IMG/VR virus record: IMGVR_UViG_3300036651_001908
Location: 59,756-123,755 of that record
Strand: one strand, 5' to 3'
Source: a virus
Length of the DNA stretch: 64,000 nt
The position numbers and the translations under genes were made by a program. Below are positions 1,330 through 64,000 of this stretch, piece by piece. Position 1 is the stretch's first letter; each line of letters opens with the position of its first letter. The notes under the pieces are model-generated. The model had not been told where the DNA came from. It did no database searches and worked only from the letters and a program-made list of their open reading frames with translations.

Positions 1330-1368
1330 CGGTCCTAGGCAGAACAAGATTTAGGAAGGACCAGGCCC

Positions 1369-2168
1369 ATGGCCGATTCCTCGGTAGCGATCACAGCCGG
1401 TACAGGCACGCCCATCCGTGTACTGACTGCCTTGGGCACCGCGAGTGCCGACCAGCAGGTCATCACCATCGCGGACTCTTCCGGCAACCTTCTTGGTACG
1501 CAGGCCGCTCCTATTCCGGTTTCGATTGCGCAGAGCGGGGGCCAGACCACTACCTCGGGCACCATCTCCGCGTCTGCGACGAACACTCCAGGCACGGCAG
1601 TCACCGCCTCCACCACGGCACAGATCGTACGGCAGCCCTGCCCGGGGTGGCCTACTTCCGTGTCCGCTGCTCGGCTTTCACGTCGGGCACCATCGCGGTC
1701 CTCATGGCCCCCGGTCCCACGTTGGTGGAACCGAACCCGTCGCTTGCAGCGTCCAGCGCTGTCATCGGCACCGTCGTGGATTCGCCCATCCTGACCGCGG
1801 TGGCCACGATGACCACTGTGGTGAACTCTGCACCGGGTGCTACGGGCACGATTGGCCACGCCGCAGCGACCATCACGGCTGCGGTCACCACTGCCGCTGC
1901 CTTCCTCAGCGCTCCGGGCGCGGGGCTCTCGATCTACATCACCGACATCAATGCCACGAACTCCGGGGCATCGGCCACGCTTGTGTCTCTATTCGCGGGC
2001 GCTGCAACGGTGCCTCTCGCTGCGAAGTACCTCCCTGTGACAAGCAGTGCGCCGCCCACCTCGTACCACACTCCGATCCGTGTCGGGACCGCGACGGCTC
2101 TGAACTACACCAACTCGGTGGCATCCACTTCGGTCTTCGTGCAGGTCACGTACTACGTCGCCCCGTAG
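1369..2168 (+). CDS. virion structural protein encoded across a -1 frame change (1369..1647 joined to 1647..2168)
   Basis: ORF 1369..1794 loses protein-like composition after QPCPG. The -1 frame continues VAYFRVRCSAFTSGT to 2168, and the junction is C CCG GGG at 1641-1647. Confidence 0.6.
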
Positions 2169-2180
2169 GAGGTGTAAGCC

Positions 2181-5100
2181 GTGCCCGGAACCTTTGTCTC
2201 CTCTTCTAGCAACCACGTTGTTGGCGCATCTTCCCTGACCGGCACCATCGTGGTGAACGCGCCAGCGAGTATCGCCTCCGGCAACCTTCTTGTCGCTGTT
2301 TTTACCAACTCCCACAACGGTGGCGTTCAGAGCGACTTGACTGCGCCCTCCGGGTGGACACGGGCCGATTCAGCGTTCTTCCGCAGCACGGTCGGTACCG
2401 GTTCGGTATTCTGGAAAGTCGCCTCTGGGGCCGAACCTTCGACTTACACCTTCACGAGCACATACTCGTCTGCGGGCGGCCACTATTTGAACACTGCCAT
2501 TCTCCAGTACGCAAGCATCGACCCCATCACTCCTGTGTCGGCCGCGCCCGTTTGGACGGCATACACCTCGGGTACGACTGCGCCTGCCGCCGCCAGCGTG
2601 ACCCCTACGACCGCGAACGGCACCTCGATCGAGGCGTGGGCTGGCTTCAACGGGGGCTCGGTCACCACCTTCCCCTCAGGAGCCATTGGCCGCACCTCAT
2701 ATACCGACTCCTCGAACTACAGCCTCTATACCGCTGACGCCCCGCTGACCGCTGGGGCTGGGACGGCGACTGGATCGAAAACTCCGACCACCAGTTCGGA
2801 TGACTGGATCAGCGTCCAGTTGGTGCTCAACCCCCGGACGACGGCAGCCTATTCAGCCAGCGCGGCGCTTTCAGGTTCTGGATCCCTTTCTGCATCTCTG
2901 CTCCCTGGCCTGGCCTCCTCTGCAACTCTCGCGGGCTCGGGCGGCCTGACCGCGGTCAACGTTCCCAACATCGTCTTTTCTGGCGGTATGGGGGGCGCTG
3001 GTGCGCTGACCGCGACCAACACCCCCTCGGTCATCACGACTGCTGCCCTCTCCGGAGCCGGTGCACTGACCGCTGCCAACCTGCCCTCTTTCCCCATCAC
3101 CCCCCAGTTGGCCGGTGCAGGAGCACTGACCGCGACCAACACTCCCTCCTTCTCGATCACCCCGCAGTTGGCAGGTGCTGGGTCACTGAGCACCACCGTC
3201 CTGCCCAGCCTGATCCTCACTCCGCAGTTGTCCGGCGCGGGTGCACTGAGTGCCACGAACACCCCTAGCCTGATTTTGGCGACGGCCCTGGCAGGGGCGG
3301 GGGTGCTGTCGGGCGCTGTCACCGCTCTATCGATCACCCTGGCCCAGTCGCTCACGGGAACCGGTGCCCTGACCGCGACCCTGAAGCCGATCGAGGTCAC
3401 CACCGCTGCACTCTCCGGAGCAGGCTCTTTGACGGTGGCCCCGCTCGTCTTCGAAGCCACGACGGCTGCCCTCTCTGGAGCAGGTGCGCTGACGGCGACC
3501 AACCTGCCATCCTTCCCCATCACTCCCCAGTTGACCGGTGCGGGTTCCTTGACCTCGGTCGGTGGCCCGCTCTACACCGCTACGGCCACGCTCTCTGGCA
3601 CTGGCTCGCTGACGGCCACCAACCTGCCCAGCCTGATCCTGGCCTCCAGCCTGACCGGCTCCGGCACGCTGTCCAGCACGGTCAAGCCGGGCCTGATTCT
3701 GGCGACCGCGCTCACTGGTGCCGGTGCTCTGACCGGAGCCGTCTCCGGTCTCTCGCTTATTTCTGCTTCTACCCTCACCGGCGCTGGCGCCCTCTCAGTG
3801 TCGGCTACACCTATCTTGGTGACCACAGCGGGGCTGTCCGGTGCAGGCACCCTGACCTACATCGGTGGCCCGCTCTACACCGCGACCGCATCCTTCTCGG
3901 GCACTGGCTCTCTGGCGGCTCCTGTGCTGCCTTCGCTGATTCTCGCTACAGCACTTACGGGCGCTGGCAGCCTCACGGTGGCACGGGTATCCGCCCTGGC
4001 CACAAACGCCGCCCTGGCTGGCGCGGGTGCCCTGTCTGGTGCCATCACCGGTCTTACACTGGTCCTCTCACAGAGCCTGTTGGGGTCGGGAACGCTTTCG
4101 GCGGCCGTGTTGGCGAAGCCGATCCTCGCCATCGCGCTTTCGGGCTCCGGTTCGCTCACTGCCGCCAACCTGCCCAGCGTCAGCACGGCGGCTGCCCTGA
4201 CAGGCTCCGGTGCCCTGACCTACATCGGTGGCCCGCTCTACACCGCGACCGCATCCTTCTCGGGCACTGGCTCTCTGGCGGCTCCTGTGCTGCCTTCGCT
4301 GATTCTCGCTACAGCACTTACGGGCGCTGGCTCGCTGACGGCCACCAACCTGCCCAGCCTGACCCTGGCCACCAACCTGACCGGTACCGGCGTGCTCTCT
4401 GCGGCCCTGTTGCCGAAGCCGGTCCTTGCCGTCGCTCTGGCAGGCTCGGGTGCCCTGTCTGTGCAGGCTGGGCAGAACTTCCAGGCCTCCGCAGCCCTCT
4501 CGGGCACGGGTGCCTTGACGTTCGTGGCTGTACCCATCCTCACGGCACTGGCCGCTCTCTCCGGTGCAGGCAGCCTGTCGGCCACGAATGTGCCTGGTCT
4601 GCTCCTCTCGACCAGCCTTTCCGGCGCTGGAGTCCTGTCCGCGACGGTGTCGCCCGGCTGGGTACTGGCCTCCAGCCTCACCGGCTCCGGCACGCTGTCC
4701 AGCACGGTCAAGCCGGGCTTCCCCGTGGCAGTCGCCCTGACAGGATCTGGTGCGCTGTCCATTCAGGCTGGGCAGGACTTCCAGGTCAACGTGGCCCTCG
4801 CAGGGACGGGCTCGCTCACCGTCTCTGTCCTGCCTCAGTTCGCACTGCCCGGTGTCCTTGCGGGGTCTGGCACCATGGTGGCGACGAGCGTGCCGAGTCT
4901 CGTCATCTCTGGTGTTCTGTCAGGCACTGGTGCTCTGAGCGCCGCCATTCTTCCGAAAATCTTGTTTGCCAGCAGCCTCACCGGCTCCGGCCTGCTCTCC
5001 GCGCTGTTCGCTCCGGGGCTCTCCGTTCCCGAGTTCTTCTCGGGCTCCGGGTCGCTCACGGAGACGGCGGCTCTGCTGGCCTCGGGTGGGGCTTCCTTCT

Positions 5101-6722: not shown

Positions 6723-7279
6723 TGACGCGGCTCACCGTGGCGCTCCGGAACTTCCTGGTGCAGACGCCCGAGATGCAAAATCTTGTTTCCGCGGGCACCA
6801 TCGGCCACGGCGTGCACTGGCCAGACGGCTGGGTCTTCGCGGACATGTCCTACGCGAGCATCGAGAAGTACAGCGCCAAGGCCATGATCGTGCTGACCGA
6901 GTCCGGCAACTACAACCCGATGAACGTCTACAACACCATGCAGTTCCCTCGGGTGCTCCTTGACATCTGGGCCTCGCCCACCCGGGACGCCAATGGCTCC
7001 CCGATCAAGGACGACGCGGACAACATCGCGGAGAACATCTTCTCTCAGATCAAGCACTACGTGCACATCACCCACCCTGCGGTGCACTCCACATCTCCGG
7101 CCTTCATGGGCTCCCCCGGGAGCATGCTCCAGTGGGGGACCGCTGCGGAGATGGCGAGCAACACCGGTGTCTTCATCGGTGACTGCACGTATACGAACGG
7201 ACCTGTCTACTCGAAGGTGACGGACGGGAACGGCGTCTTGATGGCGCGCTACACACTCGGCGTACAAGTCGTCGGGTAA
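6722..7279 (+). CDS. tail terminator-like protein
   Basis: FPRVLLDIWA motif and position before the major tail gene. Confidence 0.55.
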   Translation: MTRLTVALRNFLVQTPEMQNLVSAGTIGHGVHWPDGWVFADMSYASIEKYSAKAMIVLTESGNYNPMNVYNTMQFPRVLLDIWASPTRDANGSPIKDDADNIAENIFSQIKHYVHITHPAVHSTSPAFMGSPGSMLQWGTAAEMASNTGVFIGDCTYTNGPVYSKVTDGNGVLMARYTLGVQVVG

Positions 7280-7304: not shown

Positions 7305-8360
7305 ATGAAAATCATCTTGGCAATTCCGCTGAGTGTCTATTCCGGCTACGGCCGCGACGGCATCGGCATGACCCAGGCACTCGTCCGCGCTGGGCACGAC
7401 GTGTATCTACACCCTGAGGGTGTGCAGTCGCCACTGCCCCCGGACGTTGCCATGCTCCTGACCAAGACGCTGGAGGGCAAGTTCGACCTCGGCATCGTGC
7501 ATGTCGCCCCGGATCAGATGGCTCCCAACAAGTCCCTGCGGATGGTCTGCACCACGCTCATCGGCTGGACCATGTGGGAATACACCAACATGAACAACTG
7601 CCCTGGGCACACCAAGTTCAAGAAGGAATGGGAGCCGTACGATGCGCTGATCGCGTACGACTACAACACCGCGGACTGCCTGCGCCCGTATTTCAAGAAG
7701 TCCATTCACGTGGTGCAGGGTGGCTTCGAGCCCAAGGGCTTCGAATACCACGAGCGGGACTGGAGCGCGAACCCCTTCTTCTTCGGCATGATCGGTGTGC
7801 TGTCGCCCCGGAAGAACCCGTTCGCTGCGATCAACGCCTTCTCTCGGCTGAAGCAGGAGGAGCCGGACCTCATGGAGAACGCCCGGCTCATCCTGAAGAC
7901 TTCGACCCCGGGTCTGCATCATGGCATCGAGGACTCGCTTCCCGGTGTCCGGGTCGTCTACGACGTGTGGAACGACACCCAGGTGAAGGACTTCTATCGG
8001 CGGATCAACGTGCTGCTCGCACCGTCTCGGGGTGAGGGGAAAAATCTTCCTTGCCTGGAGGCGCTGTCCACGGGAGCCGGGGTCATCGCCACGAACTGGG
8101 GCGGCCACCGGGTGTGGATGGATGAGTCCATCGCCTACCCCCTCGACTACGACTTCATCAAGGTCAACCACTACCAGAAGAACTCCCCCATGTGGACCGA
8201 GGTGAAGGTGGACCACCTCATGTCACTCATGAAGCACTGCCTTTTGAATCGAGAAGAGGTTCGTGACAAGGGGCGGCTGGCATCGAAGATCATCCCGGCG
8301 ACCTGCAACTGGGACGCTCGCATGGCCGAACTGTTCGAGAAGTTGGGGCTGACCGCATGA
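7305..8360 (+). CDS. glycosyltransferase, GT-B fold (GT4-like)
   Basis: SGYG N-terminal motif, RKN, and PSRGEGKNLPCLEALSTG (EX7E motif). Confidence 0.9.
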   Translation: MKIILAIPLSVYSGYGRDGIGMTQALVRAGHDVYLHPEGVQSPLPPDVAMLLTKTLEGKFDLGIVHVAPDQMAPNKSLRMVCTTLIGWTMWEYTNMNNCPGHTKFKKEWEPYDALIAYDYNTADCLRPYFKKSIHVVQGGFEPKGFEYHERDWSANPFFFGMIGVLSPRKNPFAAINAFSRLKQEEPDLMENARLILKTSTPGLHHGIEDSLPGVRVVYDVWNDTQVKDFYRRINVLLAPSRGEGKNLPCLEALSTGAGVIATNWGGHRVWMDESIAYPLDYDFIKVNHYQKNSPMWTEVKVDHLMSLMKHCLLNREEVRDKGRLASKIIPATCNWDARMAELFEKLGLTA

Positions 8361-10235: not shown

Positions 10236-13200
10236 GTGTCGGACTTCAGGGAAACCGATGTCACGTACAAGGCCAAGGCCAACTTCTCCGAACTGCTTGC
10301 CCAGATCGCTGCTGTCAAGGCGGCTATCGATGCTCTCCGTGCGACCGAGAAGGATGCGAATTCCGGCTCCACCCAGGAGAACAAGGATGTCGCGGCCTCT
10401 CAGAACGCGATCACGAAGTCGCTCAAGGAGCGCGCGGCTGCTCAGCGGACCCTCAACGATCTAGAGAAGAAGGCCAAGGGCGCCTCTACCGGTGGAACCG
10501 CGGGCCAAGCGGGCGGCTCTGCGGTCTCCGACCTCAACGCGGTAGACGACGCGCAGAAGAAGGTCAGCAACAGCCGTCGCAAGATGGTCAAGGACACGCA
10601 GGATCTGTCCAAGGCCGAGCAGGATCTTGCGGCTGCACGCTTCCGTGCCTCCGCGGCAGGAGACACCAGCGACCTCTCTCGCATGGGTCTCGAAAAGAAG
10701 ATTTTCGGCCAGGTCGTGCAGAACATCGCTGCATATAACGATCTGGAGAAGGCGCAGACCCGGGCAGATACGCACCACGTCTTCGGTCTGCGGGACATCA
10801 AGTTCGCTGCCGAAGAGGCGGGGCGGGCCGAGAGTGCCGCGAGTGATGCGGGGACGGCAAGTGACTCGCGTCGTGCCGGGAGCATTCGGGCGATCACCTC
10901 AGGTCTTCGGGAGCAAGGGGTCGAAGCGGAGAAGACCGCGACCCGGGTGCAGAATCTCTTCGCGAAGATCGCATCCCTCTCTACCGGTCTCAGTGGCATC
11001 ATCAATAGGTTGCCTCCTGTGGGCCCTGGCGCGCTTGTCGGAATGGGGCTCGCTGCTCTTCCGGCGCTCTACCCCATCCTCTCCTCCCTCCTGAACGTCG
11101 TCGGTCCTCTGATCGCAGGTTTCGGTGCCCTGGGCGCAGGCACACTGGCATTCGCATCGAACCTCGCCTCTCTGTCTGCTGGTCTTGTGGCAGTCGTGCC
11201 CCTCATGGCGGGCATGGCCACCATGATGGGCACGATCAAGATGGCGCTTGCGGGTGTCACCGGGCCCAAGGGTGCCATGGCGTTGTATGCCAGGTGGCAG
11301 GATCTGATCGCCCTTGGTGCCTCACCTGCGGTCATCGGTCGGGCCCAGAAGGCTTATCAGAACGCGTTCCAGTCCTTGGCTCCCGCTGCTCAGCAGTTCG
11401 TGACGTGGAACCAAAGCATGCAGAACGCCTTCGATGCCATTCAGCATGCGGTCCAGCAGAACTTCTTCGCGCAGTTCGTCAAGGATCTGCACCTGGTCAA
11501 CGGGCTTCTCCCCCCTCTCGCGAAACTGTTCATGAACACCGCTACGGCCATGGGCCAGGTCGTAGACGACATCCTCAAGGCCCTGTCCGGGCCGCGGTGG
11601 ATCACGGCCATCAATACGTTCGCTGACACGATCGTTCCGCTGATCGGCGTGGTCAGCAAGACCATCATCAGCACCCTCGGGTTGTTCCGAGACCTGACCA
11701 TCGCCGCCCTCCCCTTCACGGTCAAGATGGTGAATGGGCTCAACAACGTCGTTGCCGGTCTCGTCGCGATGCTGAACACCCCGGGCAGGGCCGCCGCGTT
11801 CACTGCCTTCCTCGATGTCGTCTACAGCCGCCTGCTCGTCTGGCTGGACATCGTCAAGAACATCGCTCTGGTCATGGCCCGCTACAGCAGCGCCGCCTCC
11901 GGCTGGAGCAATGATGTTGTCAAGAACTTCGACAAGGTCACCAAGCACTGGGCGGACATGGCGAAGGCCGCCGAGAAGCCGAACTCAGGATTCAAGAAGT
12001 ACCTGGAGGAAATCAAGCCGCTCCTTGCCGCCTTCGGCCGACTGGGCAGTGAAGCCGTCGGCTGGATCAAGCGGATGATGTTCGATCCCCAGAACATCAA
12101 GGACATGACGAAGATCGCGGATGCTTTCGGCATCCTCGGTCACGCCCTTGCCAGTCTGCTTGACACCTTGACCAAGGGCGGCGACTTCTCGGTCATCGTT
12201 GACATCGTTGCCCAACTGATCAAGTTGATCGACCAGATTCTGAAACTGGGAGGCATCCAGGGCATTCAGGGTGTCTGGAACATCATCGACAACCTGCTGA
12301 AGTTCCTGAACGGGCTGCTTGCCTGGGCTTCGAAGGCTCCGGTCATCGGGAATGTTCTTGGCCCGATCGTCACCTCGTTGAGTGTGTTGGCGACGCTCTC
12401 GTTCATCGGCAAGTTCACGGGCCTGACCGACCTCTTCGCTTCCCTGATGCTCCTGGCGGGTACTCCTGGGATCCTTGCTGTGCTGGATCGCCTTCCCGGT
12501 GTGGTCCCCTTCATGTCGAAGACCGGTGTCAAGTTCACGGACGCCAAGAACCCCATGCAGCAGACGAAGAATGGTGAGCCGTCTGTCTGGGCCACCAAGC
12601 CTTCGAAGAACGACCCGCTCTACAAGTACAACAAGGGCGCCAAGATCGGTGACCCCGTCATGGGTCCCGGCATTATCGATGCGGGGGCCATGAGCACCCG
12701 GCAGGCTGCGCTTGCCTACGCGAAGCGGCTGAGCGCCTTCCAGGGCGAGGAGCGCGCCTTCGCCCTTGCCAGTGGTGGGAAGGACACCGCCAGCATCCTT
12801 GAGAAGTTGGGGGGCTTCCTGGGCCTCGGGGCCAAGGGTGGTGCCTTCCGCTCCACCACGCAGGCGCTGATGGATGCGGGCCTCATGGCCAAGGGGGGCA
12901 AGGCCTGGGGCCTGGGTGGGCTGCTCGGCAAGGGCATCTCTGGTGTTGGGAGCAAGATCCTCCCCGGCATCGGTGCCTTGTTCGGGGGCATGGATCTTTT
13001 CAACATGACCCAGAACGCGGGCTCCTCGAAGGGCAGCCCGGAGGTTCAGCGGTTCCTCAAGCACCCGACCCAGGCCAACGCGCTGGCCATGGCCAAGTCC
13101 ATCAACGGTGGGGTGTGGGGCGGAGCCGGACAGGGGGCGCTCGATGGCTTCGGCATCGGCTCCCTCCTCGGTCCCTGGGGCATGCTCGGTGGGGCACTTG

Positions 13201-15584
13201 TGGGCGGTGTCTACGGGGGAGCCACGGGTGGCATCCAGGCGAGCGGCTCGAAGAACCTGGGTCGCGGTTGGGGGAACATTGCCCAACAGGCATGGAAGAA
13301 CCCGGGCTCACTGAGTGGCACGTTGGGCACCGCCTACGGCATGCTCGGCCAGGCGATGGGGCTCCCCAAGGGCTACGGGTCGGCCTTCGGAGGGGTTGTC
13401 GGGGGTGCCGCAGGGTTTGGGCTCGGGAACGCCAAGGGCCTGATCGGGAACTTCCAGCACGGTGGTGACCAGATCGCAGGCTTCTTCAAGGGTGCAGCCA
13501 ACAACTTCACCTATGGAGCGAAGCAGATCAGTGGCTTCTTCAAGGGTGTAGCCGACAACTTCACCTATGGAGGGAAGCAGATCGTCGGCTTCTTCAAGGG
13601 TGTCGTCGCGAACTTCGCCCATGGTGCTCAGCAGATCGCCTCCTTCTTCAAGCCTGTCACGGATAAGTTCGCCGCGGGTGCGAAGCAGATCGGTGACTGG
13701 TGGAGCAAGGAGGTCATCCCTGGCTGGGCCCACGGTGCTAAGCAGATCGGTGACTGGTGGAGCAAGCAGGTTGTTCCCGCTTGGGCCCACGGCGCTAAGC
13801 AGATCGGTGACTGGTGGAGCAAGGAGGTCATCCCTGGCTGGGCCCACGGCGCTAAGCAGATCGGTGACTGGTGGAGCAAGACGGTTGTTCCTGCCTGGGC
13901 GCATGGTGCTCAGCAGATCGCCGCATTCTTCAAGCCTGTCGTGGACGGTTGGTTCATCGTCGCGAAGCAGGTCGGCCAGTTCTTCAAGCCCATGGTGGAC
14001 AAGTGGGCCTACGGAGCGAAGCAGATCGGTGATTGGTTCCATGGTGTAATCAACAACTTCGCCCACGGCTGGTCACAGATCGCTGGGTGGTGGAAGGGAG
14101 TCATTGACAACTTCGCCCACGGCTGGTCACAGATCGCTGGGTGGTGGAAGGGAGTCATTGACAACTTCGCCCACGGCTGGTCACAGATCACCGATTGGTT
14201 CCATGGTGTAATCGACAACTTCGCCCATGGCTGGAAGCAGATCACCGATTGGTTCCAGGGCCTGATCAACAACTTCGCCCACGGGTGGAAGCAGATCACC
14301 GATTGGTTCACTCAGGTCGGTAAGAACATTGACAATGGCTGGCATTCACTCACTCAGTGGTGGCACGACATTGGCAAGCACATCGATGGCTGGTGGAACG
14401 GCGTCACCAGTTGGTGGCAGCAGGTCGGCAAGAACGTCAACAAGTGGTGGGATGGTGTCACCAGTTGGTGGCAGCAGGTTGGCAAGAACGTCAACAAGTG
14501 GTGGGACGGCGTCACCAGTTGGTGGCAGCAGGTTGGCAAGAACGTCAGCAAGTGGTGGGATGGCGTCACCAGTGCTTGGGTCAAGATCGGTCAGAACATC
14601 CGTGGTTGGTGGGACGGCGTCTCCACTGCTTGGGTCAAGATCGGCAAGGACATCCGTGGTTGGTGGGATGGTGTCACCAGTGGCTTTGTCAAGATCGGCA
14701 AGGACATCTACAACTGGTGGAATGGGGTCACCAGCGGATTTGTGAATATAGGAAAGAAGATTTTCGCACTCTTCGGCGGGGTCGCCGGGGCCTTCATGAA
14801 TGCCATCAAGACCATCGGTGGGATTGGAGGCGCAGTCGGAGGCGCAGTCTCAGGTCCCCTCGGCAGTGTGATCAGTGGCGCGCTGAAGGCGGCTGGTGCT
14901 CCGCTGTCTTGGGCCGGGGACATCGCGAAGATCATTCACTTCGAGTCCGGTGGAAACGCCAACGCCCAGAACAACTGGGACAGCAACGCCAAGGCCGGTC
15001 ACCCGTCGCAGGGTCTGATGCAGTTGATTCCGGGCACCTTCTCGGCGTATGCCGGAGGGTACGCCAGTAGGGGCATCCGGGACCCCTTCGCGAATGTGTT
15101 CGCGGGCATCCGGTACATCATGGCCAACTACGGCAGCGTCTACAATGTTCCGGGCATCAAGTCGCTGGCTGCGGGAGGCTCCTACGTGGGCTACTCCACC
15201 GGTGGTTCCGTCACTGGTGGGGCCGGTCCCCGGTGGAAGAAGAACGGCACCGACACCGTTCCTGCCATGCTCACACCGGGTGAGTTCGTCATCCGCAAGC
15301 CGGTCGTGGACCTGCTCGGGGTCCAGAACCTTCGTCTGCTGAATAGCATGACGACCTACTCCAAGTTCCTCACCGGGCCGATGCGCTCCCCGCGCCCACC
15401 GGTGGTTGCGCCCTACCAGCCTGGGGTGCCCGGCTGGATGAGGAGCCCTGGGTTCAGTGGTCACGGCCCGAGCCCTGCTCAGACCTTCGGCAACATCATC
15501 ATCAACAACCCGCTGCCCGAGCGGGCCAGCGATACCCTTCCGCGCACCACGCGCAAGATGGGTTACCTCGGCCCGACCCGATAG
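10236..15584 (+). CDS. tape measure protein with C-terminal lytic transglycosylase (SLT) domain
   Basis: 1782 aa, helical, Trp-periodic 18-19 aa repeats, HFESGGNANAQNNWDSNA..GHPSQGLMQ SLT motif, GTDTVPAMLTPGEFV. Confidence 0.95.
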   Translation: MSDFRETDVTYKAKANFSELLAQIAAVKAAIDALRATEKDANSGSTQENKDVAASQNAITKSLKERAAAQRTLNDLEKKAKGASTGGTAGQAGGSAVSDLNAVDDAQKKVSNSRRKMVKDTQDLSKAEQDLAAARFRASAAGDTSDLSRMGLEKKIFGQVVQNIAAYNDLEKAQTRADTHHVFGLRDIKFAAEEAGRAESAASDAGTASDSRRAGSIRAITSGLREQGVEAEKTATRVQNLFAKIASLSTGLSGIINRLPPVGPGALVGMGLAALPALYPILSSLLNVVGPLIAGFGALGAGTLAFASNLASLSAGLVAVVPLMAGMATMMGTIKMALAGVTGPKGAMALYARWQDLIALGASPAVIGRAQKAYQNAFQSLAPAAQQFVTWNQSMQNAFDAIQHAVQQNFFAQFVKDLHLVNGLLPPLAKLFMNTATAMGQVVDDILKALSGPRWITAINTFADTIVPLIGVVSKTIISTLGLFRDLTIAALPFTVKMVNGLNNVVAGLVAMLNTPGRAAAFTAFLDVVYSRLLVWLDIVKNIALVMARYSSAASGWSNDVVKNFDKVTKHWADMAKAAEKPNSGFKKYLEEIKPLLAAFGRLGSEAVGWIKRMMFDPQNIKDMTKIADAFGILGHALASLLDTLTKGGDFSVIVDIVAQLIKLIDQILKLGGIQGIQGVWNIIDNLLKFLNGLLAWASKAPVIGNVLGPIVTSLSVLATLSFIGKFTGLTDLFASLMLLAGTPGILAVLDRLPGVVPFMSKTGVKFTDAKNPMQQTKNGEPSVWATKPSKNDPLYKYNKGAKIGDPVMGPGIIDAGAMSTRQAALAYAKRLSAFQGEERAFALASGGKDTASILEKLGGFLGLGAKGGAFRSTTQALMDAGLMAKGGKAWGLGGLLGKGISGVGSKILPGIGALFGGMDLFNMTQNAGSSKGSPEVQRFLKHPTQANALAMAKSINGGVWGGAGQGALDGFGIGSLLGPWGMLGGALVGGVYGGATGGIQASGSKNLGRGWGNIAQQAWKNPGSLSGTLGTAYGMLGQAMGLPKGYGSAFGGVVGGAAGFGLGNAKGLIGNFQHGGDQIAGFFKGAANNFTYGAKQISGFFKGVADNFTYGGKQIVGFFKGVVANFAHGAQQIASFFKPVTDKFAAGAKQIGDWWSKEVIPGWAHGAKQIGDWWSKQVVPAWAHGAKQIGDWWSKEVIPGWAHGAKQIGDWWSKTVVPAWAHGAQQIAAFFKPVVDGWFIVAKQVGQFFKPMVDKWAYGAKQIGDWFHGVINNFAHGWSQIAGWWKGVIDNFAHGWSQIAGWWKGVIDNFAHGWSQITDWFHGVIDNFAHGWKQITDWFQGLINNFAHGWKQITDWFTQVGKNIDNGWHSLTQWWHDIGKHIDGWWNGVTSWWQQVGKNVNKWWDGVTSWWQQVGKNVNKWWDGVTSWWQQVGKNVSKWWDGVTSAWVKIGQNIRGWWDGVSTAWVKIGKDIRGWWDGVTSGFVKIGKDIYNWWNGVTSGFVNIGKKIFALFGGVAGAFMNAIKTIGGIGGAVGGAVSGPLGSVISGALKAAGAPLSWAGDIAKIIHFESGGNANAQNNWDSNAKAGHPSQGLMQLIPGTFSAYAGGYASRGIRDPFANVFAGIRYIMANYGSVYNVPGIKSLAAGGSYVGYSTGGSVTGGAGPRWKKNGTDTVPAMLTPGEFVIRKPVVDLLGVQNLRLLNSMTTYSKFLTGPMRSPRPPVVAPYQPGVPGWMRSPGFSGHGPSPAQTFGNIIINNPLPERASDTLPRTTRKMGYLGPTR
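13680..14740 (+). repeat. 54/57-bp tandem repeats in the tape measure gene
   Basis: Near-identical DNA units encoding AHGAKQIGDWWSKEVIPGW, AHGWSQIAGWWKGVIDNF and WWDGVTSWWQQVGKNVNK. Confidence 0.85.
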
Positions 15585-52272: not shown

Positions 52273-53768
52273 ATGGCGCACACTGTCGAACTCCTCGGTG
52301 GCCCCTTTGACGGGTCCATCGTTGTCGTGCAGGAAACCTCGACGCAGTACATGGTGGTCGCGAACAACACCGACTTGAACTCGATCCGTGTGCACGAGAA
52401 GGCTCTACCGGATTTGCAGGTGGGGTTTTACGAGCCACCGAATCCTCTACCCAAGGTCCCACCGGAGCGAGAGCGCTGGTACTGGATCGGCTACCGAAAG
52501 CAGGAAGACAATGAGTGAGTCACCTACCCGTCCACCGTTGACGCGGAACCAAAAACTTGTTCTCGGGGGCCTGCTCATCGCCGTGGTGGCTCTGGTCATC
52601 GTCATGGTCGGTGCCGCCGCAGCCGCTTCCGGTCCCACCCCGCAGACGGGCACGCCCGGCGCTCAGATGGTCGCTGCCAACCACGCGGCCGAGGTGAAGC
52701 AACTCGAAGGCTCCATCAAGAAGAACGTCGAAACGGCCATCCCGGGCACGACCATTCTCGATGTGACCTGCATCCCGGATGGCACCGGGAACGAGCACAG
52801 CACGTCGTACGCCTGCCTCGCTGCCACCACGAAGAACTCGGACGGCAGTGAGTCCGGCTACAACTTCACCGGCGTCATCAACTGGGACACCGGCCAGTAC
52901 GTCTGGAGGCTCGCTCGATGATCGATGACCAAGAAGAACTCACTCGACGCTTCATGACCGAACCTCGCTTCCACGCCATTGTGAAAGCGCTTCAGAACGC
53001 AGCGTTCTACGGGGGTCGCTACCCCGTTCTAGAGGCAATGCGCGTAGCCGCACGACTCGATGGGATGTTCAATGACCACGCATGACTATCGCGGTCCGTA
53101 CGACGAAGCGCACTGCCTCACGATCAAGCGGGTGGAGGGCCCCGCCATCAGCGGAGTGCTCTTCACCGGTGACCCGATCACCAAGGGTGACTTTCTAGTT
53201 GTGAAGGACTGGACCGACGAGACGCAGGGACGCGTCTACGTGATCACGGAACTCTATTCGTTCCTTCTACCGGAGAACATGTACCAATACCGGGCCACCG
53301 CAGCCTCGAATGGGGCGTAGTGATGCGGGAACTCGCAATTCTCGACCCGTGGGGCTCGATCGTCAATGTCGTGACGACATCGAAGCCTCGCGCTGAAGTG
53401 CAGAAGGAATGGCCATCGCACCGCGTGCTGCCCCTGGCCGACGTTCCGGCGCATGCCAAGCACGCCTACGAATACTGGGGGAACCGGCCATGACGCGGGA
53501 GCGTGAAGCGCGGATTCGAGCGCTCCGAATCGAACTCGCTGAACTCGAACGCCAGGAGCAGTGGGAACGCCAGATCCGGCTTGCCGGGTTCACTCCCCAG
53601 GACGGTGGGTTCTTCGTGTGGAGAAACGTCGAGTGAAAATCTTGTTCACGGCTCTCGGGCTCGTGCTCCTGACCATCTCGTGGGAGAACTCGCAGTACCG
53701 ACTATCTCTAGTCGTGAACCGACTAGGGAAGTGGTTCTGGACTCACGGAATGATCCGAATAGGCTGAC
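52273..53768 (+). CDS. plus-strand island of small genes (52273-52518, 52511-52921 membrane/secreted, 52918-53085, 53072-53320, 53323-53493, 53490-53636, 53633-53768)
   Basis: Overlapping start/stop codons; TM helix in 52511-52921. Confidence 0.65.
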
Positions 53769-55568
53769 TACTTCTTCTTCTTGATCTTCGCCTTCTGCAC
53801 GGACTTGTGAATCATCATCCGGGAGGCGTGAACTCCGATTAGAACGCCACCAACCCCGGAGCGGCAGGGCATTCCGGAGCCCGCGCCACAGGTAGGGCAG
53901 GACTCTTCCTGCGCCTCTTGCGCGGAGGACTCGGTGGACTCGTCAGCATCAGTCATGAGGGGATTCTACTTCCTTCTCGGGTGCGGCAGCCGTCTGCTTC
54001 TTCACCCACCATCGGCAGTAGTAGCCCAGCCCGCCGCAGAGGGCGGCGAGGATCGCCAGCACGGGGATCATCAGATGTCCATTGCTCGGCCGGTGCGAAC
54101 TCCTTCGCACAGCCACAGCGGCGTGCTGTCGCCCGCCAGTTCCTCGGCGTAGGGATCAGGACCCCAGTGCCCGATTCCATCGCAGTTCACGCCGTACGAC
54201 CGCTCCGGGCACTGCCCCACCGGGTGCATGCGCACGAGCATGTTGTACGCCGGGTGTTCCTTGTCGGGCACCGGCAAATCTTCTTGACGCACACGTGAGG
54301 TCTGTGGCTTCGGGCTGTCACTGTCGAACTGCCCAGCCATGTTGGTGTGCCAGGTCTTGTTGTTCTTCGCCATCAGAGCCCTTTCCACGGGGTGTGCTGT
54401 TCCTTGATCCACTTCTCGAAGGCGGCCACGTCGGTGGTCACCAAGCCGGTCTGGGTGTCCACGAACAGGGTCAGGGTGACCATGGAGGCTCCGACGCCCC
54501 ATCCCCGTGACTCGGGTTGCTTCTCGGCGTGCACGGTGTACTCCTCGTACATCCGGTCCGTCGTGAAAGTCTCAACGCCGGACTTGCCCCAGTCGGTGTA
54601 CTCGATTTGGTGTGCCATCAGTTGTCCTCTCGTCGGTATCAAGCCAGGCGTCCACAATCTCCTCGTGGTCGTCGGGGTGGTCGTGTGAAAGCCTGCTCAT
54701 GAAATCTTCTTCTCTCTCAGGTTTGCGTCGCAGATACGTCGGTCGGTGTGCAGGAGCCTCATGTCCGGGTCCCACTCGGCGGCAGCGGTCTTGACCGAGC
54801 CGACACCCTCCCCGCCACAGCGGTCGCATGTGACGGGGAACGCCCAGATGTTCATGATCGCGGCTCCAGTCGGTCTTGCACAGCCAGCAGAGCCCAGGAG
54901 GACAACTGCAATGCGCGGTAGTCGCGCTTCCAGATCAGGTACTTCTCGATGAACTCGTTCATGAAATCTTCTTCCTCTCGATGATGCCTTCGGCCGCTTC
55001 CACGGCATCGCGCCGCAGGCGGAAGTGGGTGCTGACCTGGCCGTAGCCGTCGATGAACAGCCGCCAGTAGTGGACGGTCAGCGGGCGCGGGGCTATGTTG
55101 TAGTACTGCTCGACGCGCAGGACGGTGCCGACAATGCCTCCGTCCACGAACAGGTCAGCGCGCCCGGGTCCGTTCGACTCGACCTTGATCTTCGTCATTC
55201 CCCTACCTCTTCCTCGAACTCGACCAGCAGGCGGAACACCAGTTCGGCATCCTCGGTGGTGAGGTGGATGCGGATGACGCCGTTCAGCAAGCCGTCCAGG
55301 TCGATGCCGTCGATGTCCATCCTCGGGTCGTCCGTGTCCGCCGCGAGGGTGGTGCGGATCAGCGCCCGGCCCACCTCGGCGGCTACAGCAGGAACCATGT
55401 CCTCATGCATCATGACTTGTCTCCTTCGATGTAGTGCGCGCCGTCTTCCAGCATCGCGTCGTAGCGGATCTTCGGAATCCGGATCCACTGGGACTGATCG
55501 AACAGGCGACCGTAGTACTGCCTGCGGGTGCGGTTCCGGTTCCACTTCCAGGTGATGTCGAATGTCAT
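53768..55568 (-). CDS. run of small hypothetical genes, several Cys-rich (e.g. 53768-53956, 54071-54373, 54373-54618, 54697-54855, 54959-55198, 55195-55413)
   Basis: ATGA overlaps; CxxC motifs. Confidence 0.6.
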
Positions 55569-57203: not shown

Positions 57204-57497
57204 TCACAGCCGTGTCACCCTCCAGTGCGTGATGGGCCGGAAGCACAGGCACAGTCGGCCTATCTCCAGGTCGGCTAGATACAGCCGGTGCCGTCCATCG
57301 CACCACAGGATGACGTGATCCATCCCCGGGACGGCCGAACACAGGGCCGGGGTGGGTGTCGTGACAGCCCAGCGCGCGACGTGCGTGCAGGTGTGGAGAA
57401 CCTTGGACTGGCACTCCAGTTCCGGCTCGTCCAGCATCAGCAGGTCGAAATCTTCTTCTTGCAGCGTGTCAGTCAATTCCCAATCCTCTCTCGTCAC
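57204..57497 (-). CDS. Cys/His-rich protein, paralog 1
   Basis: LDEPELEC....HTCTHVARW...WC..RH...CLC...HW.V..L. Confidence 0.7.
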   Translation of the reverse strand: MTREDWELTDTLQEEDFDLLMLDEPELECQSKVLHTCTHVARWAVTTPTPALCSAVPGMDHVILWCDGRHRLYLADLEIGRLCLCFRPITHWRVTRL

Positions 57498-58135
57498 ACT
57501 GTAGACAGAACCACTCGTTCAGATCGTCGTTCTCGATCACGATGAACGTCTCGTGCGCGCAGTCAGTTGACATCTTCTTCTTCCTCAGTGAGCGTGATGT
57601 TCACGCGCATCCACTTCTTCACGCCGTGGTAGGTCTCGTTCCAGACTTCGGCCTCCAGCACCCCATCGGGGCTCAGGTGGTAGCCGTACTGCCCGGTGGA
57701 CGTGTGCTCACCCAGGCTCAGCAGATCGCGCTTCACGTCCTCGACCGAGACTGTCGTCTCCCCGTGCCGCTTGCGGGCTCGCATGATGCGTCCGTCTTCA
57801 GTCATCAGTAGTCCCAGTCCTCTTCTTCGGCTTCTTGCCCGTCCTTCGGGCACGGTGCTACGTCGCCGCAGACCTCGCACTCCAGTCCGCGCCGGGTGAT
57901 CCAGTTCGCGTTGTCATCCATGAGGATGTCGCGGTAGTACGTCTGCCCGTGTCTCATTGCTCGGCTCCTTGCATTCTCTTTCGCCAGCGCATCGCATCGT
58001 GGATCGCGCTCTCGTATCCCTCTAGCCGGAAGATGTTTTCCGTTAGTGCAAGAGGGTCGCCCGATAGAACCGCCTGATCGGTCAGCACCCGGTACATGTC
58101 GTACATACGTTCGAGGTAGGCAATGACCTCATCCA

Positions 58136-58402
58136 TCAGAGCGGCCTCACCGTCCAATGCTCGACGCCTCGCCCGCATCGGCACCGCACGTAGTTGCCGA
58201 TGTCTTGCATGTGGAGCGTGTGCCGCCCGACGCACCACAGTTTCACTAGAGGGGACGACGTGAGCGTGGCGCAGCCCACATCCACCTCCGCCACGTACTT
58301 CGCCACGATGGTGCACCGGTGCTCCGGCTCGACCGAATCGCAGCGTAGTTCTGGCTCGTCCAGGAACAGCAGGACTAAATCTTCTTCTTCCAGGGTCTCC
58401 AT
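58136..58402 (-). CDS. Cys/His-rich protein, paralog 2
   Basis: LDEPELRC.....HRCTIVAKY...WC..RH...CRC...HWTVRPL. Confidence 0.7.
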   Translation of the reverse strand: METLEEEDLVLLFLDEPELRCDSVEPEHRCTIVAKYVAEVDVGCATLTSSPLVKLWCVGRHTLHMQDIGNYVRCRCGRGVEHWTVRPL

Positions 58403-58878: not shown

Positions 58879-59013
58879 GGTGGTCTCCTAATTCTTGTTT
58901 TCCAGGCAGCCGCTCGTTCGCTCGGTGCCACCTATGCCGGTACGGCTCGGTCAGGTACTCTTCGCCCCAGAATATAATACGCAGGCACTCCGCGCAATAG
59001 GCAGGCCCCGCGG

Positions 59014-59283: not shown

Positions 59284-60539
59284 CGTCCACCTCGTGGTCG
59301 CAAAGCATCTCGTCCCCCTCGTGGCAGTGGTCGCAATCGAAATCGCAGCGCATCTGCTCGACCTCGTGCATCCGTCCGGCCAGGTCCAGCACCTCGTGCG
59401 CTTCGGCCTTCAGGCCATCGCGGAACAGGATCAGTGCCCGGAATGCCAGCGCTTCGGTAATCTTGGCCCGCTCCCGCTCGCTCAGTTGCATCAGAAATCA
59501 TCTTCCCCACAGGCAGCGCAGTACCAGGTACCGGCCGGTGTCTCTTCCAGTTCATCCACCGCTCGACAGTTCGGGCAGGTGAAGTGAGGCACCATGCCCC
59601 AGTCGTTCTCCATCAGATCGTCTCGTCCGCGAACTCGGTCATCCGGTTCAGCAGATCCTTCTCGGTGTCCGAATAGCCCAACTTCGGCTCGGCCAACTTC
59701 AGAATCTCGACCCAGCCCAGGATGGTGTCGGCCTCATCCGTCGTCAGCGGGAAGTAGGCGCGGGTCGGCAGCGGCGCAGCGTCAGGCCATGGCCCGACCG
59801 GATACTCCTCCATCAGAAATCCTTCTTTGCGTGTGCGTTGAGGATGTCGCGGACTCGACGCGTGCTGATCCAGCCCTTGAGCCCTTGCTCGTCCTCTTCG
59901 TCACACGCGCTTCGTAGTGCGAGCGCCAATAGAGACATGGGCGGAATCTTCTTCTTGCCGAACATCTCAGTCCCCTTTCGTGAACTTGTTCAGAACCGCG
60001 ACCGGGACAAGCGCCCTCGACACGTGGTTCTCGTCGCAATACTTCGATATGAATGCACAGTCACAGTCGTACCAAGTGACCCACACCTCTTCGGCCTCGG
60101 GCATCACATCCCCTTCGTCTTGGCAATGATCCGGCGCAGTCGCACCACCGGTATCTCCTTGTAGCCGATCGTCTCGGCACGCTCGCACTCGTCCTGAATC
60201 TCCCGGAGAGCGGTGCCCAGGCGTTGGATGGTCAGGCCTAGAACCTCGACCAGTTCCCCGTGGTTCAGCCGCGCTAGATCCTCAGGCAGCGTCATCGTCG
60301 TCCTTTCCCATCAGTCGAATCTCCACACTCGACGGCGGCTCCAGGATCAAGAATTGGATCCGGACCTCCTGGTCCAGCAGCAGCCGCGCGACCCGGCCCA
60401 AGTCCACCGCGTCCAGCGTCAGTGACTCGCCCCCACCTCGGAGGATCAGCGCAGCCAGCGCCAGGCGCAGGTCCTCGACCTCGGCTTCCAGGTGCACCCA
60501 GTGGTTCATCTGCTTCGTCAGTTTGTCTTCTAGAGTCAT
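59270..60539 (-). CDS. run of small hypothetical genes (59270-59491, 59613-59813, 60104-60295, 60282-60539 and shorter ORFs)
   Basis: Gene packing; 60539 is leaderless (TATGAT-N6-ATG). Confidence 0.6.
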
Positions 60540-60610: not shown

Positions 60611-60616
60611 GATTCC

Positions 60617-61274: not shown

Positions 61275-61829
61275 TTACGGAAGCCAGCGGTGGTTCAGCG
61301 CATAGCCCCCATCGGTGTGGTGACGGTCAGGGGACCACAGACGCCACTCCCGCGACTTGATCCAGTCCTGACGCCCGGACATGTACTTGCTCCGCGCCTC
61401 GGCGTCCTGCGACCAGGCCAGCGCCCCATCGTTGCCGTAGAGCCGGTCGTACTCACGGGCGAGGTCGCCGTAGTCGTTGCTGTGATCGTTGCTCGGGCAG
61501 CCCTTGCCGATGCAATCGAACCCATCGGGGTAGAGCGTGCGGCTCAGGCTGTAGACAACATGAAATCCCATGTCCATCCCAGCGCCACCGACCACCAGTG
61601 CGTCGGTCTTGGGCGAAATCTTCATGCCCAGCGCCTTCGACACTCGCCAGGTGTGGACGAGAACGGTGTCCTTGCTCGGGATGGTGAGCACGTCGATGTG
61701 GCGGCTCATCCCGGAGGACGCGACGTGCTTGAGGGAGGTCCAGACGGTGTCGCCGGGACGGAGGGACTGACGGAGGTCTGCGATTGCTTCGGCCTGCTCG
61801 GTGCGCTCGGCCTTGGTGGTGGTTGACAT
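61275..61829 (-). CDS. conserved phage hypothetical protein (leaderless)
   Basis: SSGMSRHI...GAGMDMGFHVVYSL; TTGCGC-17-TACGCT-N6-ATG. Confidence 0.8.
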   Translation of the reverse strand: MSTTTKAERTEQAEAIADLRQSLRPGDTVWTSLKHVASSGMSRHIDVLTIPSKDTVLVHTWRVSKALGMKISPKTDALVVGGAGMDMGFHVVYSLSRTLYPDGFDCIGKGCPSNDHSNDYGDLAREYDRLYGNDGALAWSQDAEARSKYMSGRQDWIKSREWRLWSPDRHHTDGGYALNHRWLP

Positions 61830-61874: not shown

Positions 61875-62243
61875 CTAGCACTCCTCCGAAATCATGTTTT
61901 CTTCTCTCCTCCGCAGCAGGGTGGCCACATCGATCAGGGCTCGCTTGCGCGCTTCCCGGTCGCGGTCCCTCTGCCGCATCTTTGCGGGCAGGTGCCGGAG
62001 CCAGGTCCAGAAAATCCAGTTACAGACTCCGATCACCACGACCCCGATCGTCACCAGCCCGGATCCCGGCCGGGCAGCCCAGTCGGCGCTCGGGTTCGGG
62101 CCGTCCATCAGTCCACCGATGACGCAGAGGATCGTGCCGGGGAATCCGATCACAGCGATCAGCACCAGCCAGCCGAGTCCGATCACCAGCCGTCCCAACA
62201 GGTGGGCGACGGCGGCACGCTCGGCCGCCTCGTGTCTGCTCAT
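61875..62243 (-). CDS. membrane protein (leaderless)
   Basis: Two hydrophobic segments; TATGAT-N6-ATG. Confidence 0.7.
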   Translation of the reverse strand: MSRHEAAERAAVAHLLGRLVIGLGWLVLIAVIGFPGTILCVIGGLMDGPNPSADWAARPGSGLVTIGVVVIGVCNWIFWTWLRHLPAKMRQRDRDREARKRALIDVATLLRRREENMISEEC

Positions 62244-62348
62244 ATCCGTATCATATCACCATGTAATAGTCACGGCAAGGTGGTTTTCCTGAAGACTGTG
62301 AAATCTTCTTTTACACCCTGCACCCCAAACGTAGATCATGATGTTCCC

Positions 62349-62600: not shown

Positions 62601-62607
62601 TGTACGC

Positions 62608-63552
62608 GTGACTGCCATCCAGCAAGTGTCCATCAGGCACTTCCAGAGCCTCGTGGACGTATCCCTCACGCTTGGCAACTTCACCGTGATTGTGGGACCC
62701 AGCAGCAGCGGTAAATCCGCGTTCGTCCGCGCCCTCCAGACACTCACCCACAACGCCCGTGGGACCGCCTTCATCACCCAGGGCAAGCCGGGTTGCAGCA
62801 TCACGGCGACCCTGCCCACTGCGATCGTCACACTCACCCGCTCCCGCTCCTCATCAGCCACGGATGCCTACGGGGTCCGCACCGACGAGAACGATCAGCG
62901 GCGGTACACCAAACTCGGGGGCTCAACCCCACCGGAAGTCACCAGCGTCTTCGGGCAAATGGCGGACCCCAGCGCTATCGCATCCCAGTTCGATCCGCCG
63001 TACCTGCTCACCCAATCGCCAGCAGAGGCAGCCAGGACACTCGCGGCCCTCACCGGCTCGGACGTGGTGCTCGAAGGAGCACGGGAAGCCAACAGACGGC
63101 GGCTCGAAGCAACAGCCACGCTCCGCACCCGCTCATCCGACAAGGCCAAAGCGGAACAAGAATTAGCCAGCCACGCCCAGCACGCCAGCCAATCGGCCCA
63201 TCTCGACAGCGCGGAACCGCACCTCACCGATGCAAAAGCACTTCTGCACCAGTGCGCAGCGCTCCAGGGCCTTCTGGATCACATCTCGGCAGACTCCACG
63301 GGCATCCAGATCCACCGGGAAGCACTCGCCAGCCTGCCCAGCATCCCCGACCTGGCACCGCTCGACACACTCAGCGACAGCATCAGGGCACTCCGGTACA
63401 GCATCGCCAACGTGACCAGCAGGGCCTACAGCGTCCGGGACCTGAAGAGCACGCTCGACGGGCTCGAAGTCGAAATCGACCACGCATCAGAGCGCTACGA
63501 CGAGACGCTGCATGCGCTCGGGGTCTGCCCCACCTGCCATCAGCCGGTCTAA
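62608..63552 (+). CDS. SbcC/Rad50-like ATPase, N-terminal half ending at the zinc hook
   Basis: IRHFQS, IVGPSSSGKS Walker A, Q-loop SQFD, coiled coil, terminal CPTCHQ; TATAGT-N6-GTG. Confidence 0.85.
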   Translation: MTAIQQVSIRHFQSLVDVSLTLGNFTVIVGPSSSGKSAFVRALQTLTHNARGTAFITQGKPGCSITATLPTAIVTLTRSRSSSATDAYGVRTDENDQRRYTKLGGSTPPEVTSVFGQMADPSAIASQFDPPYLLTQSPAEAARTLAALTGSDVVLEGAREANRRRLEATATLRTRSSDKAKAEQELASHAQHASQSAHLDSAEPHLTDAKALLHQCAALQGLLDHISADSTGIQIHREALASLPSIPDLAPLDTLSDSIRALRYSIANVTSRAYSVRDLKSTLDGLEVEIDHASERYDETLHALGVCPTCHQPV

Positions 63553-63578
63553 CACTCCGCCATACCCAGCAAATACGC

Positions 63579-63613
63579 CCCAAAACCCCGCAGAACCTGC
63601 CCAAAACCCCGCA
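63579..63613 (+). repeat. 14-bp direct repeat CCCAAAACCCCGCA, period 21
   Basis: Copies at 63579 and 63600, with a degenerate third copy at 63629. Confidence 0.8.
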
Positions 63614-64000
63614 TCAACGCCAGCAGATCCCAAACCGCAAATGTGTACTACTCCAGAGCCCGCACCTCAGCGGACCATCCAGACGTAGAACTGCATCGTG
63701 AGCCACCGGTCGAAATCTTCTTGCCGACTCCCAGGGGCAGGCTTGGTCAACCGGCCTAGATACTCCCAGCCGCGCAGTCGATACCGGCTCATCTCGGTGT
63801 CTCGCACCACGGCACACTCGTTCGGCGGCTCAGCAGCCACGCGTAGCACCCCCGGAATGCCATCGTGGCGTCGGATAGAGCGACGAACAGCCCCTATTGG
63901 GCATCGTCACCCTCTGCGACATTCCCAGAGCCTGATTTGCCCCACCACGCGTGGTCCCCGATGGGCGCTCCGCGCCATGCACCGTCCACCTGGCGCAGTC

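Follow-up and report, generated by a model that had tools for sequence, protein, structure and literature searches.

The stretch analysed here (the window; 64,000 nucleotides) comprises bases 59756-123755 of the 123,755-bp IMG/VR phage record IMGVR_UViG_3300036651_001908, which has a completeness rating of 99%, and the element in question is a dispersed AT-rich 10-nucleotide word, AAATCTTSTT or equivalently AASAAGATTT (carried by the sequence AAGAAGATTT, written as for a duplex oligonucleotide). Genes recognised in this phage include those for a tape-measure protein, a family-A DNA polymerase (PolA), a DnaB-like helicase, an SNF2 helicase, a RecA-like protein and a sigma factor (window 24879-25610; phrog_351, E = 9e-15); all gene models are those of our own crude caller, which called 189 proteins. 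The nearest cultured relative is Microbacterium phage Magritte, whose PolA is 45% identical and whose gene order is syntenic, and megablast against phages gave no match to this phage. No Pfam tyrosine or serine recombinase (integrase) family matched the genome, so the phage looks lytic. Pfam likewise gave no match in the genome to Lsr2, HNH, type IA topoisomerase or any of four DNA methyltransferase families. The proteins scanned included none recognisable as RecBCD/AddAB-type, and no repressor was found, the L5 gp71 sequence not being among the queries. The G+C content is 62.4% for the genome and 61-64% for the window, not the 65% assumed in an earlier, sequence-only reading of the same DNA. 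The ends of the record overlap by 362 bp with 3 mismatches (genome 1-362 and 123394-123755, the latter being window 63639-64000), which could mean either that the assembly is circular or permuted or that a short terminal repeat varies between strains.

The window contains 24 exact copies of the word (18 plus, 6 minus; Table 1), each where the sequence-only reading had placed it, against a mean of 0.04 and a largest value of 2 in 100 dinucleotide shuffles of the window. The whole record contains 37 (26 plus, 11 minus), of which 36 are unique because the ends overlap. All thirteen one-mismatch copies listed earlier are also present, one of them with its start corrected from 48641 to 48640, and with seven more that had not been listed the copies with at most one mismatch number 44, where 1.53 are expected. 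The edges of the word are sharp; the flanking positions are uninformative except that the next base is never A (0 of 36), and neither a second half-site nor a promoter partner (-35/-10) was found beside it. The spacing of copies is not distinguishable from random (coefficient of variation of the gaps 0.86 versus 0.96 for random placement, and 0.70-1.10 across genomes), which rules out even spacing.

Twenty-three of the 36-37 copies (64%) lie wholly within called genes, in agreement with the earlier description of the word as mostly intragenic, and they greatly outnumber those left by synonymous-codon shuffling (mean 2.2, maximum 6) or codon permutation (mean 0.13). Thirteen are sense copies (0.14 after permutation and 2.2 after synonymous shuffling) and ten are antisense (0.06 and 0.11, respectively). 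The word uses AAT, CTT, ATT, GAA, GAT and xxA codons, and these are indeed rare, as had been proposed: their mean synonymous share is 0.35 versus 0.51 for the genome, with AAT at 0.13, CTT at 0.07 and ATT at 0.12, and A-ending codons are likewise infrequent. The peptides KKI/NKI, EEDF/QDF, NLL/NLV and KIL(L/F) are all seen, as had been described; just two of the three reading frames are used in each orientation.

A protein search gave at least 120 PolA relatives, 26 of them with a longest contig of 110-139 kb, and an alignment of PolA retrieved 28 loci from viral contigs. Six of these loci have the exact word 11, 5, 5, 4, 3 and 3 times, respectively, and each of the others has it 0-1 times; it is absent from Magritte and from one IMG/VR relative. 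De novo k-mer ranking of whole contigs showed that the exact word is scarce because the relatives carry other spellings. These share the core ASAAGAWTY across a clade of ~125-kb soil phages: the AASAAGATTT of this phage is AASAAGAWTC in G004 (where the looser AA[CG]AAGA[AT]T[CT] has 91 copies), AAGAAGATTC in G017, AGAAGATTY in G006, ASAAGAATTT in G011, AGAAGAATC, often GAGGAGAAGAATCATG, in G003, and a shifted form, AAGATTCTGAG, in G012. By comparison of spellings, G011 is the sole examined relative with the same TTT ending. The core is present, with the count for a reversed-pattern control in brackets, 118 (0) times in G004, 77 (5) in G003, 57 (3) in G011, 56 (1) in G017, 50 (0) in G006, 38 (2) in G007, 28 (0) in G005 and 23 (3) in G001, against 8 (1) in Magritte, 6 (1) in G008 and 0-6 in the outgroups G015, G016, G018, G019 and G021. 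Nine of ten more distant genomes of the PolA tree have 0-7, the exception being G022 with 24 (control 16). A paired-copy pattern scan of viral contigs gave AT-rich chance matches among the matches listed, every ranked locus having a G+C fraction of at most 0.50. Overall the word occurs in at least 9 of 13 related genomes, and in the PolA tree all word-bearing genomes fall into one clade with 100% support. Since Magritte and G008 are nested inside this clade without the word, the tree suggests that the word is an old feature that was later lost, or whose spellings diverged beyond recognition; the top k-mers of Magritte, G008 and G001 are promoter motifs only.

Sense and antisense copies are cleanly separable in the relatives because nearly all of their genes lie on one strand. 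With the permutation and synonymous-shuffle means in brackets, the intragenic sense and antisense copies are, respectively, 34 (0.26; 6.6) and 17 (0.05; 0.68) in G004, 8 (0.03; 1.0) and 10 (0.04; 0.77) in G017, 19 (0.19; 2.7) and 9 (0.18; 0.49) in G006, and 14 (0.18; 0.7) and 2 (0.14; 0.1) in G011. Across the five genomes, antisense intragenic copies exceed the synonymous shuffles 13-90 times, which upholds the earlier proposal of an asymmetric cis-site selected at the DNA level. These comparisons show that selection acting directly on the DNA maintains the word, in both strands and in genes of every module, at 0.2-0.9 copies/kb.

Its density is maintained while individual sites come and go. 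When intragenic sites were compared with seven relatives, 4 of 105 orthologous positions had a copy within two codons, where we estimate from the per-window densities that chance would give about 1. All 20 of the aligned places compared codon by codon (in Magritte, G001, L018 and L020) lack the word, and their residues are often different (for example, ANLV in this phage and ANVI in Magritte). The metagenome loci L018-L022 proved uninformative as close relatives for synonymous-site conservation, and soil runs that contain a near-identical phage, in the form of contigs, show 0 differences in most of them and so are uninformative on site conservation. One soil-run contig (X6) matches the window apart from about 95 bp (window 58432-58525) that differ by 29 substitutions and small gaps; this patch looks recombinant within an otherwise clonal population.

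The word sits where AT-rich sequence costs least, namely in x-K-I/N codons, in spacers between ribosome site and ATG, and in terminator loops. It makes up about one fifth of the AT-rich 10-mers in the genome because there are just 157 other 10-nt stretches with at least 8 A/T; 64% of word copies and 54% of those stretches are in genes, and 22% and 25%, respectively, are at most 35 nt from a start. Strong terminator hairpins hold three copies (genome 3532, 6622 and 12459) and some copies lie between convergent genes; a general hairpin context is ruled out, as the sites with 20 nt on either side fold no more stably than random places (mean -12.2 versus -13.7 kcal/mol). In the leftward small-gene block, where density is 2.6 times higher, 15 of 16 copies are on the plus strand and thus have AASAAGATTT on the sense strand, while the rightward block is split 11 to 8. 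The purine form is also the commoner one on the sense strand in seven relatives examined, G017 being balanced, and antisense intragenic copies in relatives number 5-29. This preference arises because the commonest coding solution, nAS-AAG-AWT (x-K-I/N), needs one rare codon, and orientation weakly tracks local purine skew (p about 0.04). The earlier statement that the word stays on the plus strand is therefore correct as a count, but a strand-specific signal is not supported, since the bias follows coding economy and purine skew. Of the intergenic copies at most 25 nt upstream of starts, 42 have the purine form on the sense strand and 4 do not, which is expected because the purine-rich ribosome site adjoins them; outside ribosome-site spacers the intergenic split is 29 to 18. 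Among all ASAAGAWTY copies, those with the purine form 0-30 nt upstream of a called start number 5 of 55 in this phage, 24 of 118 in G004 and 19 of 77 in G003. The two uncalled leftward genes of Table 1 are paralogues that have the word at the same codons and start M-x-T-L-(Q/E)-E-E-D-(F/L)...L-D-E-P-E-L-x-C.

Table 1. Copies of the word in the window, with strand, spelling where it differs or is given in sense, and surroundings (SD, Shine-Dalgarno sequence; entries marked "new" were absent from the earlier list)
Position	Strand	Copy	Sequence	Context
1343..1352	-	exact	AAATCTTGTT	intergenic, 16 nt before plus-strand SD-ATG
4957..4966	+	exact		1130-aa gene (K-I-L-F)
6778..6787	+	exact		in gene (Q-N-L-V)
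10695..10704	-	exact		tape-measure gene (K-K-I-F); purine form on sense strand
14754..14763	-	exact		tape-measure gene (K-K-I-F)
15736..15745	+	exact		in gene (A-N-L-L)
21775..21784	+	exact		codons 2-5 of gene (M-R-N-L-L), 30 nt after CGATAGT late promoter; G011 has a copy at the same place
22994..23003	-	exact		SNF2 helicase gene (E-Q-D-F)
26727..26736	-	exact		DnaB-like helicase gene (K-Q-D-F)
27938..27947	+	exact		150-aa gene (A-N-L-V); same place and orientation in G011
33431..33440	+	exact		DNA polymerase A gene (G-N-L-L-F); codons and residues differ in four relatives
34910..34919	+	exact		3' end of polymerase gene (E-N-L-V), next start 24 nt on
39721..39730	-	exact		76-aa gene (N-K-I-S)
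44314..44323	+	exact		small membrane-protein gene (K-I-L-F)
45681..45690	+	exact	AACAAGATTT	sense (minus): word-N4-GGAG-N8-ATG, ahead of 94-aa HTH-like gene
49897..49906	+	exact	AACAAGATTT	sense: word-AC-AAGGAG...ATG; leader or N-K-I-Y codons
53637..53646	+	exact		region without confident gene call
54276..54285	+	exact		leftward 100-aa gene (Q-E-D-L)
54702..54711	+	exact	AAGAAGATTTCATGA	sense K-K-I-S-stop, overlaps next ATG
54964..54973	+	exact		K-K-I-S-stop/ATG junction as at 54702, but non-paralogous gene
57448..57457	+	exact		codons ~6-9 (Q-E-E-D-F) of uncalled leftward gene (57400-57520, minus)
58377..58386	+	exact		codons 5-8 (E-E-E-D-L) of uncalled leftward gene (58330-58450, minus)
62301..62310	+	exact		divergent intergenic; 24 nt upstream of -35 of leaderless leftward promoter
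63713..63722	+	exact		within 362-bp terminal overlap; genome position 75
7309..7318	+	one mismatch	AAATCATCTT	new
8042..8051	+	one mismatch	AAATCTTCCT	
23402..23411	-	one mismatch	AAATCATCTT	new
31685..31694	+	one mismatch	AATTCTTGTT	
38587..38596	-	one mismatch	AAATCTTGAT	
39268..39277	+	one mismatch	AAATCTTCTC	
40523..40532	+	one mismatch	AAATCTTGAT	
46759..46768	-	one mismatch	GAATCTTCTT	new; G017/G004 spelling
47194..47203	-	one mismatch	AATTCTTCTT	new
48478..48487	+	one mismatch	AAATCTTCAT	
48640..48649	+	one mismatch	AAATCATGTT	
51110..51119	+	one mismatch	ATATCTTGTT	
52552..52561	+	one mismatch	AAAACTTGTT	
57570..57579	+	one mismatch	ACATCTTCTT	new
58890..58899	+	one mismatch	AATTCTTGTT	
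59495..59504	+	one mismatch	AAATCATCTT	new
59944..59953	+	one mismatch	GAATCTTCTT	
61616..61625	+	one mismatch	AAATCTTCAT	
61889..61898	+	one mismatch	AAATCATGTT	
63155..63164	-	one mismatch	AATTCTTGTT	new

The promoters of the phage have other sequences. The early promoter is TTGCA-N17-TACCAT followed by a leaderless ATG and the late promoter is CGATAGT; with these as separate motifs, no fixed partner element and uninformative flanks, the word was rejected as an early or late promoter or sigma-factor site. Most of the listed GCAGTATG sites belong to a near-identical promoter, TTGCA-N17-TACCAT-CGCAGT-ATG, in which the ATG falls at the expected transcription start, and this makes for a run of small, leaderless early genes, each with its own promoter. 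The 10-mer GCAGTATGAA occurs 11 times on the minus strand, in genome 4605-9125 and at window 61827 (genome 121582). The late-promoter-like motif CGATAGT/CGATTGT precedes structural genes at window 625, 8587, 15593, 21123, 21738, 44430 and elsewhere, and the related forms CGATAGTA and CGATATC head the k-mer lists of G001, G002, G005, G007 and Magritte; ACGCGCTAAC is common to Magritte and G008, inside promoter spacers. Several relatives also over-represent other words: the palindrome TGCAATTGCA/ATTGCAAT in G011 (26 copies) and G006 (24), TTTCCGGAAA-type palindromes in G012, and GGCGTACGCC in G015 (22 copies). A GANTC methylation site was ruled out because GANTC, although GAWTC lies within several spellings, is neither avoided nor confined to the word. 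An Lsr2 site was also ruled out; the genome has no Lsr2 match, and the word contains neither a TpA step nor an AT run of more than 4. We note two further gene pairs: paralogous predicted secreted proteins that are 64% identical, one per leftward block (window 60617-61156 and genome 5978-6538), and HicA-like genes that are 44% identical (window 43458-43670 and genome 22997-23191).

We consider it a serious possibility, though still somewhat short of probable, that a conserved phage protein, active throughout the genome, recognises the word on duplex DNA; the word would serve as a private label absent from the host chromosome. Its use of both strands and all modules, its costly intragenic sites, their random spacing and turnover, the core with dialects, and the finding of 0 exact copies in 1.57 Mb of two Rhodococcus megaplasmids (a stand-in for the host) together point to such a genome-wide duplex label; two scans of genome contigs found no relative. 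A phage-encoded, clade-conserved protein would bind the word on double-stranded DNA in either orientation, and its specificity would drift together with the spelling. The word could then be a private address label by which some DNA-handling activity of the phage is steered to phage DNA, within any stretch of a few kb, and kept away from the much larger G+C-rich host chromosome. That activity would more likely be replication, recombination, protection or packaging than gene-by-gene control of transcription, with a logic resembling that of Chi or DNA-uptake sequences and not that of operators.

Chi, the site of RecBCD and AddAB, is a dispersed asymmetric word that is present about once per few kb, marks DNA as "self" for a machine that processes DNA, and differs between lineages; only one strand of it is read, and its skew follows the direction of replication. 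The word of this phage is similar in being dispersed, asymmetric, present about once per few kb and lineage-specific, but unlike Chi it is AT-rich, longer and selected in both orientations, and no RecBCD/AddAB-type enzyme was seen. A more specific proposal, which we regard as unlikely but worth keeping in mind, is that a conserved phage recombination nuclease, primase or packaging motor switches its behaviour at the word as at a Chi-like "self" tag, so that any piece of phage DNA a few kb long, unlike a G+C-rich host chromosome without the word, is replicated, spared or packaged, with reader and word co-evolving into dialects. If this were true, the dialects could also keep related co-infecting phages apart. 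The DNA uptake sequences of Neisseriaceae, as described in the available part of the source, resemble the word in being 10-12 nt long, over-represented hundreds-fold, intragenic, on both strands and without fixed positions, and in having lineage dialects around a conserved core, but they serve uptake by competent bacteria via a pilus protein (PMC3630211). The word is viral and no uptake machinery is involved. By analogy, its pattern appears to be that of genome-wide tags such as DNA uptake sequences or Chi.

No clean candidate for the reader emerged when all 189 called proteins were profiled across the related genomes. The AP2 and helix-turn-helix (HTH) proteins that had been suggested as binders do not follow the word: the AP2-like protein and one HTH protein have homologues only in G011 and the other HTH proteins in none of the 13 relatives, unlike the word itself. 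The AP2-like protein matches Pfam AP2 with E = 0.033 and a PHROG HNH-endonuclease family with 2e-6. A ribbon-helix-helix protein and a DGQHR/ParB_N-like protein were set aside because they too have no homologue in the 13 relatives; the latter (299 aa, genome 19482-20381, phrog_5931, with Atlas structural neighbours named DGQHR) has homologues up to 39% identical scattered among diverse actinophages. Three others were rejected as well: a 276-aa protein, which the word-poor G016, G018 and G020 have but G017 lacks; a DUF6011 protein, found in G012, G013 and G020 but not in G007 or G001; and a giant, modular protein of 3361 aa, most of which is missing from G012 and G017. The open reading frame for the giant protein (genome 42462-52547) lies between the portal region and the scaffold or capsid genes and has no Pfam or PHROG family except for one weak 110-aa match; it is partly conserved in relatives. 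A reader, if conserved, is probably a core protein with drifting specificity; the clade core comprises roughly 30 proteins.

Several points weigh against a genome-wide label. No binding protein was identified, and no protein of this phage tracks the word across genomes. The rarity of the word in the real host is extrapolated from the stand-in Rhodococcus DNA, the comparison genomes are all uncultured contigs, and the gene models behind the intragenic counts come from our crude caller. The exact spelling of G011 has just 2 antisense copies in genes. The PolA tree is a quick version and not a finished careful search, and the clustering of word-bearing genomes in it partly reflects ancestry. Finally, the oriented start-proximal copies, including those that abut an ATG in G004 and G003, would also fit an added or original role at the RNA level.

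The sequence-only reading had compared the word with stoperators, and we find it improbable that a phage repressor or regulator binds it to block or tune host RNA polymerase. Cluster A stoperators, in the part of the source available, are asymmetric 13-mers with more than 20 copies that are absent or rare in host-like DNA and are read by a monomeric repressor; they lie in promoters and short intergenic gaps, oriented with transcription, in temperate phages with an integrase and a two-domain repressor of the L5 type (PMC9283540). The word is likewise asymmetric, about the right size (10-11 nt) and about right in number (36 unique copies), one late promoter is flanked by two copies (genome 42391 and 42434), and the dense leftward block has nearly all its copies in one orientation to transcription. 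However, coding economy accounts for that bias, the rightward block has no comparable one, almost two thirds of copies are intragenic, positions are not conserved, and neither an integrase match, a repressor nor a conserved HTH candidate was found, so the analogy is not supported.

Strand-specific nicks, as in T5, or sequence-specific base modification of the virion DNA are improbable too. The word is asymmetric and sharply bounded like enzyme recognition sites, the genome is one that we take to be like T5 in size, tail type, family-A polymerase and Mre11-like nuclease, and the related Magritte record is annotated with many tRNA genes. On the other hand, copies are on both strands, and the Pfam searches matched neither HNH nor any of the four DNA methyltransferase families.

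There is little chance that the word is an RNA-level or translation-start element like the start-associated sequences of Cluster K phages, with the intragenic copies as by-products. As far as the accessible text describes them, those sequences share a single orientation, are confined to the non-structural half of the genome, are defined by a Shine-Dalgarno core and, in virtually all cases, sit 3-7 bp ahead of a start; their function is likewise unknown (PMC3203893). A subset of word copies is similar: 42 of the 46 copies at most 25 nt upstream of a start have the purine form on the sense strand, AAGAAGAATC directly abuts the ATG in G004 (10 copies) and G003 (13), and four copies in this phage are arranged word-N2-4-SD-ATG. 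Most copies are away from gene starts, however, both orientations are enriched and all modules carry the word, which has no GGAG/AGGAG, lies also in terminator loops and between convergent genes, and has the antisense intragenic excess given above. It fits neither the stoperator nor the start-associated-sequence definition.

Recognition or start sites for a phage primase or replisome loader would be a special case of a genome-wide label, and one to which we give scant credence. The word is present once per 1-3.4 kb, which is the scale of Okazaki fragments, both strands are used and sites do not keep their positions. Eleven of 13 relatives conserve a stand-alone zinc-finger protein of DnaG type (window 28244-28792; 182 aa, with a CHC2 zinc-finger pattern by eye, no Pfam match, and a Magritte homologue annotated as DNA primase); a separate domain for primase catalysis was not recognised. 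However, Magritte and G008 encode this protein without carrying the word, it went undetected in G007 and G001, which do carry the word, and known primases read 3-5 nt, not 9-11.

Very unlikely, too, is a site for a host factor such as actinobacterial topoisomerase I: the mycobacterial enzyme recognises C(G/T)CTT(C/G) (PMC6379724, in the part available), and the word contains TCTT(C/G) with the same C/G ambiguity and matches 5 of 6 positions, but the first C is A in the word (A-T-C-T-T-S), so that the hexamer is absent and the cytosine preferred at -4 of that cleavage point (PMC6101483, likewise seen in part) is missing, and the invariant AAA and TT flanking the core are unexplained. Against the host enzyme, the differences in spelling between related phages point to a reader that the phage encodes.

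To our knowledge, previous work on repeated words in phage genomes has linked them to promoters, operators or gene starts. The word described here is intragenic and on both strands, carries a cost in rare codons and amino-acid changes, turns over in position, and has a core with dialects in a clade of ~125-kb actinobacterial-type phages. Such a signature is that of genome-wide tags like DNA-uptake sequences and Chi, and it is not described for lytic phages in the literature searched, where neither this word nor any such intragenic word shared by a clade of lytic actinophages was found; matches to the four 10-mers, in the portions of the texts available, were only primers and the like. A reader protein, if found, would show how these phages tell their own DNA from that of the host without base modification, and could also offer a sequence-based handle for classifying this phage group independently of the host.

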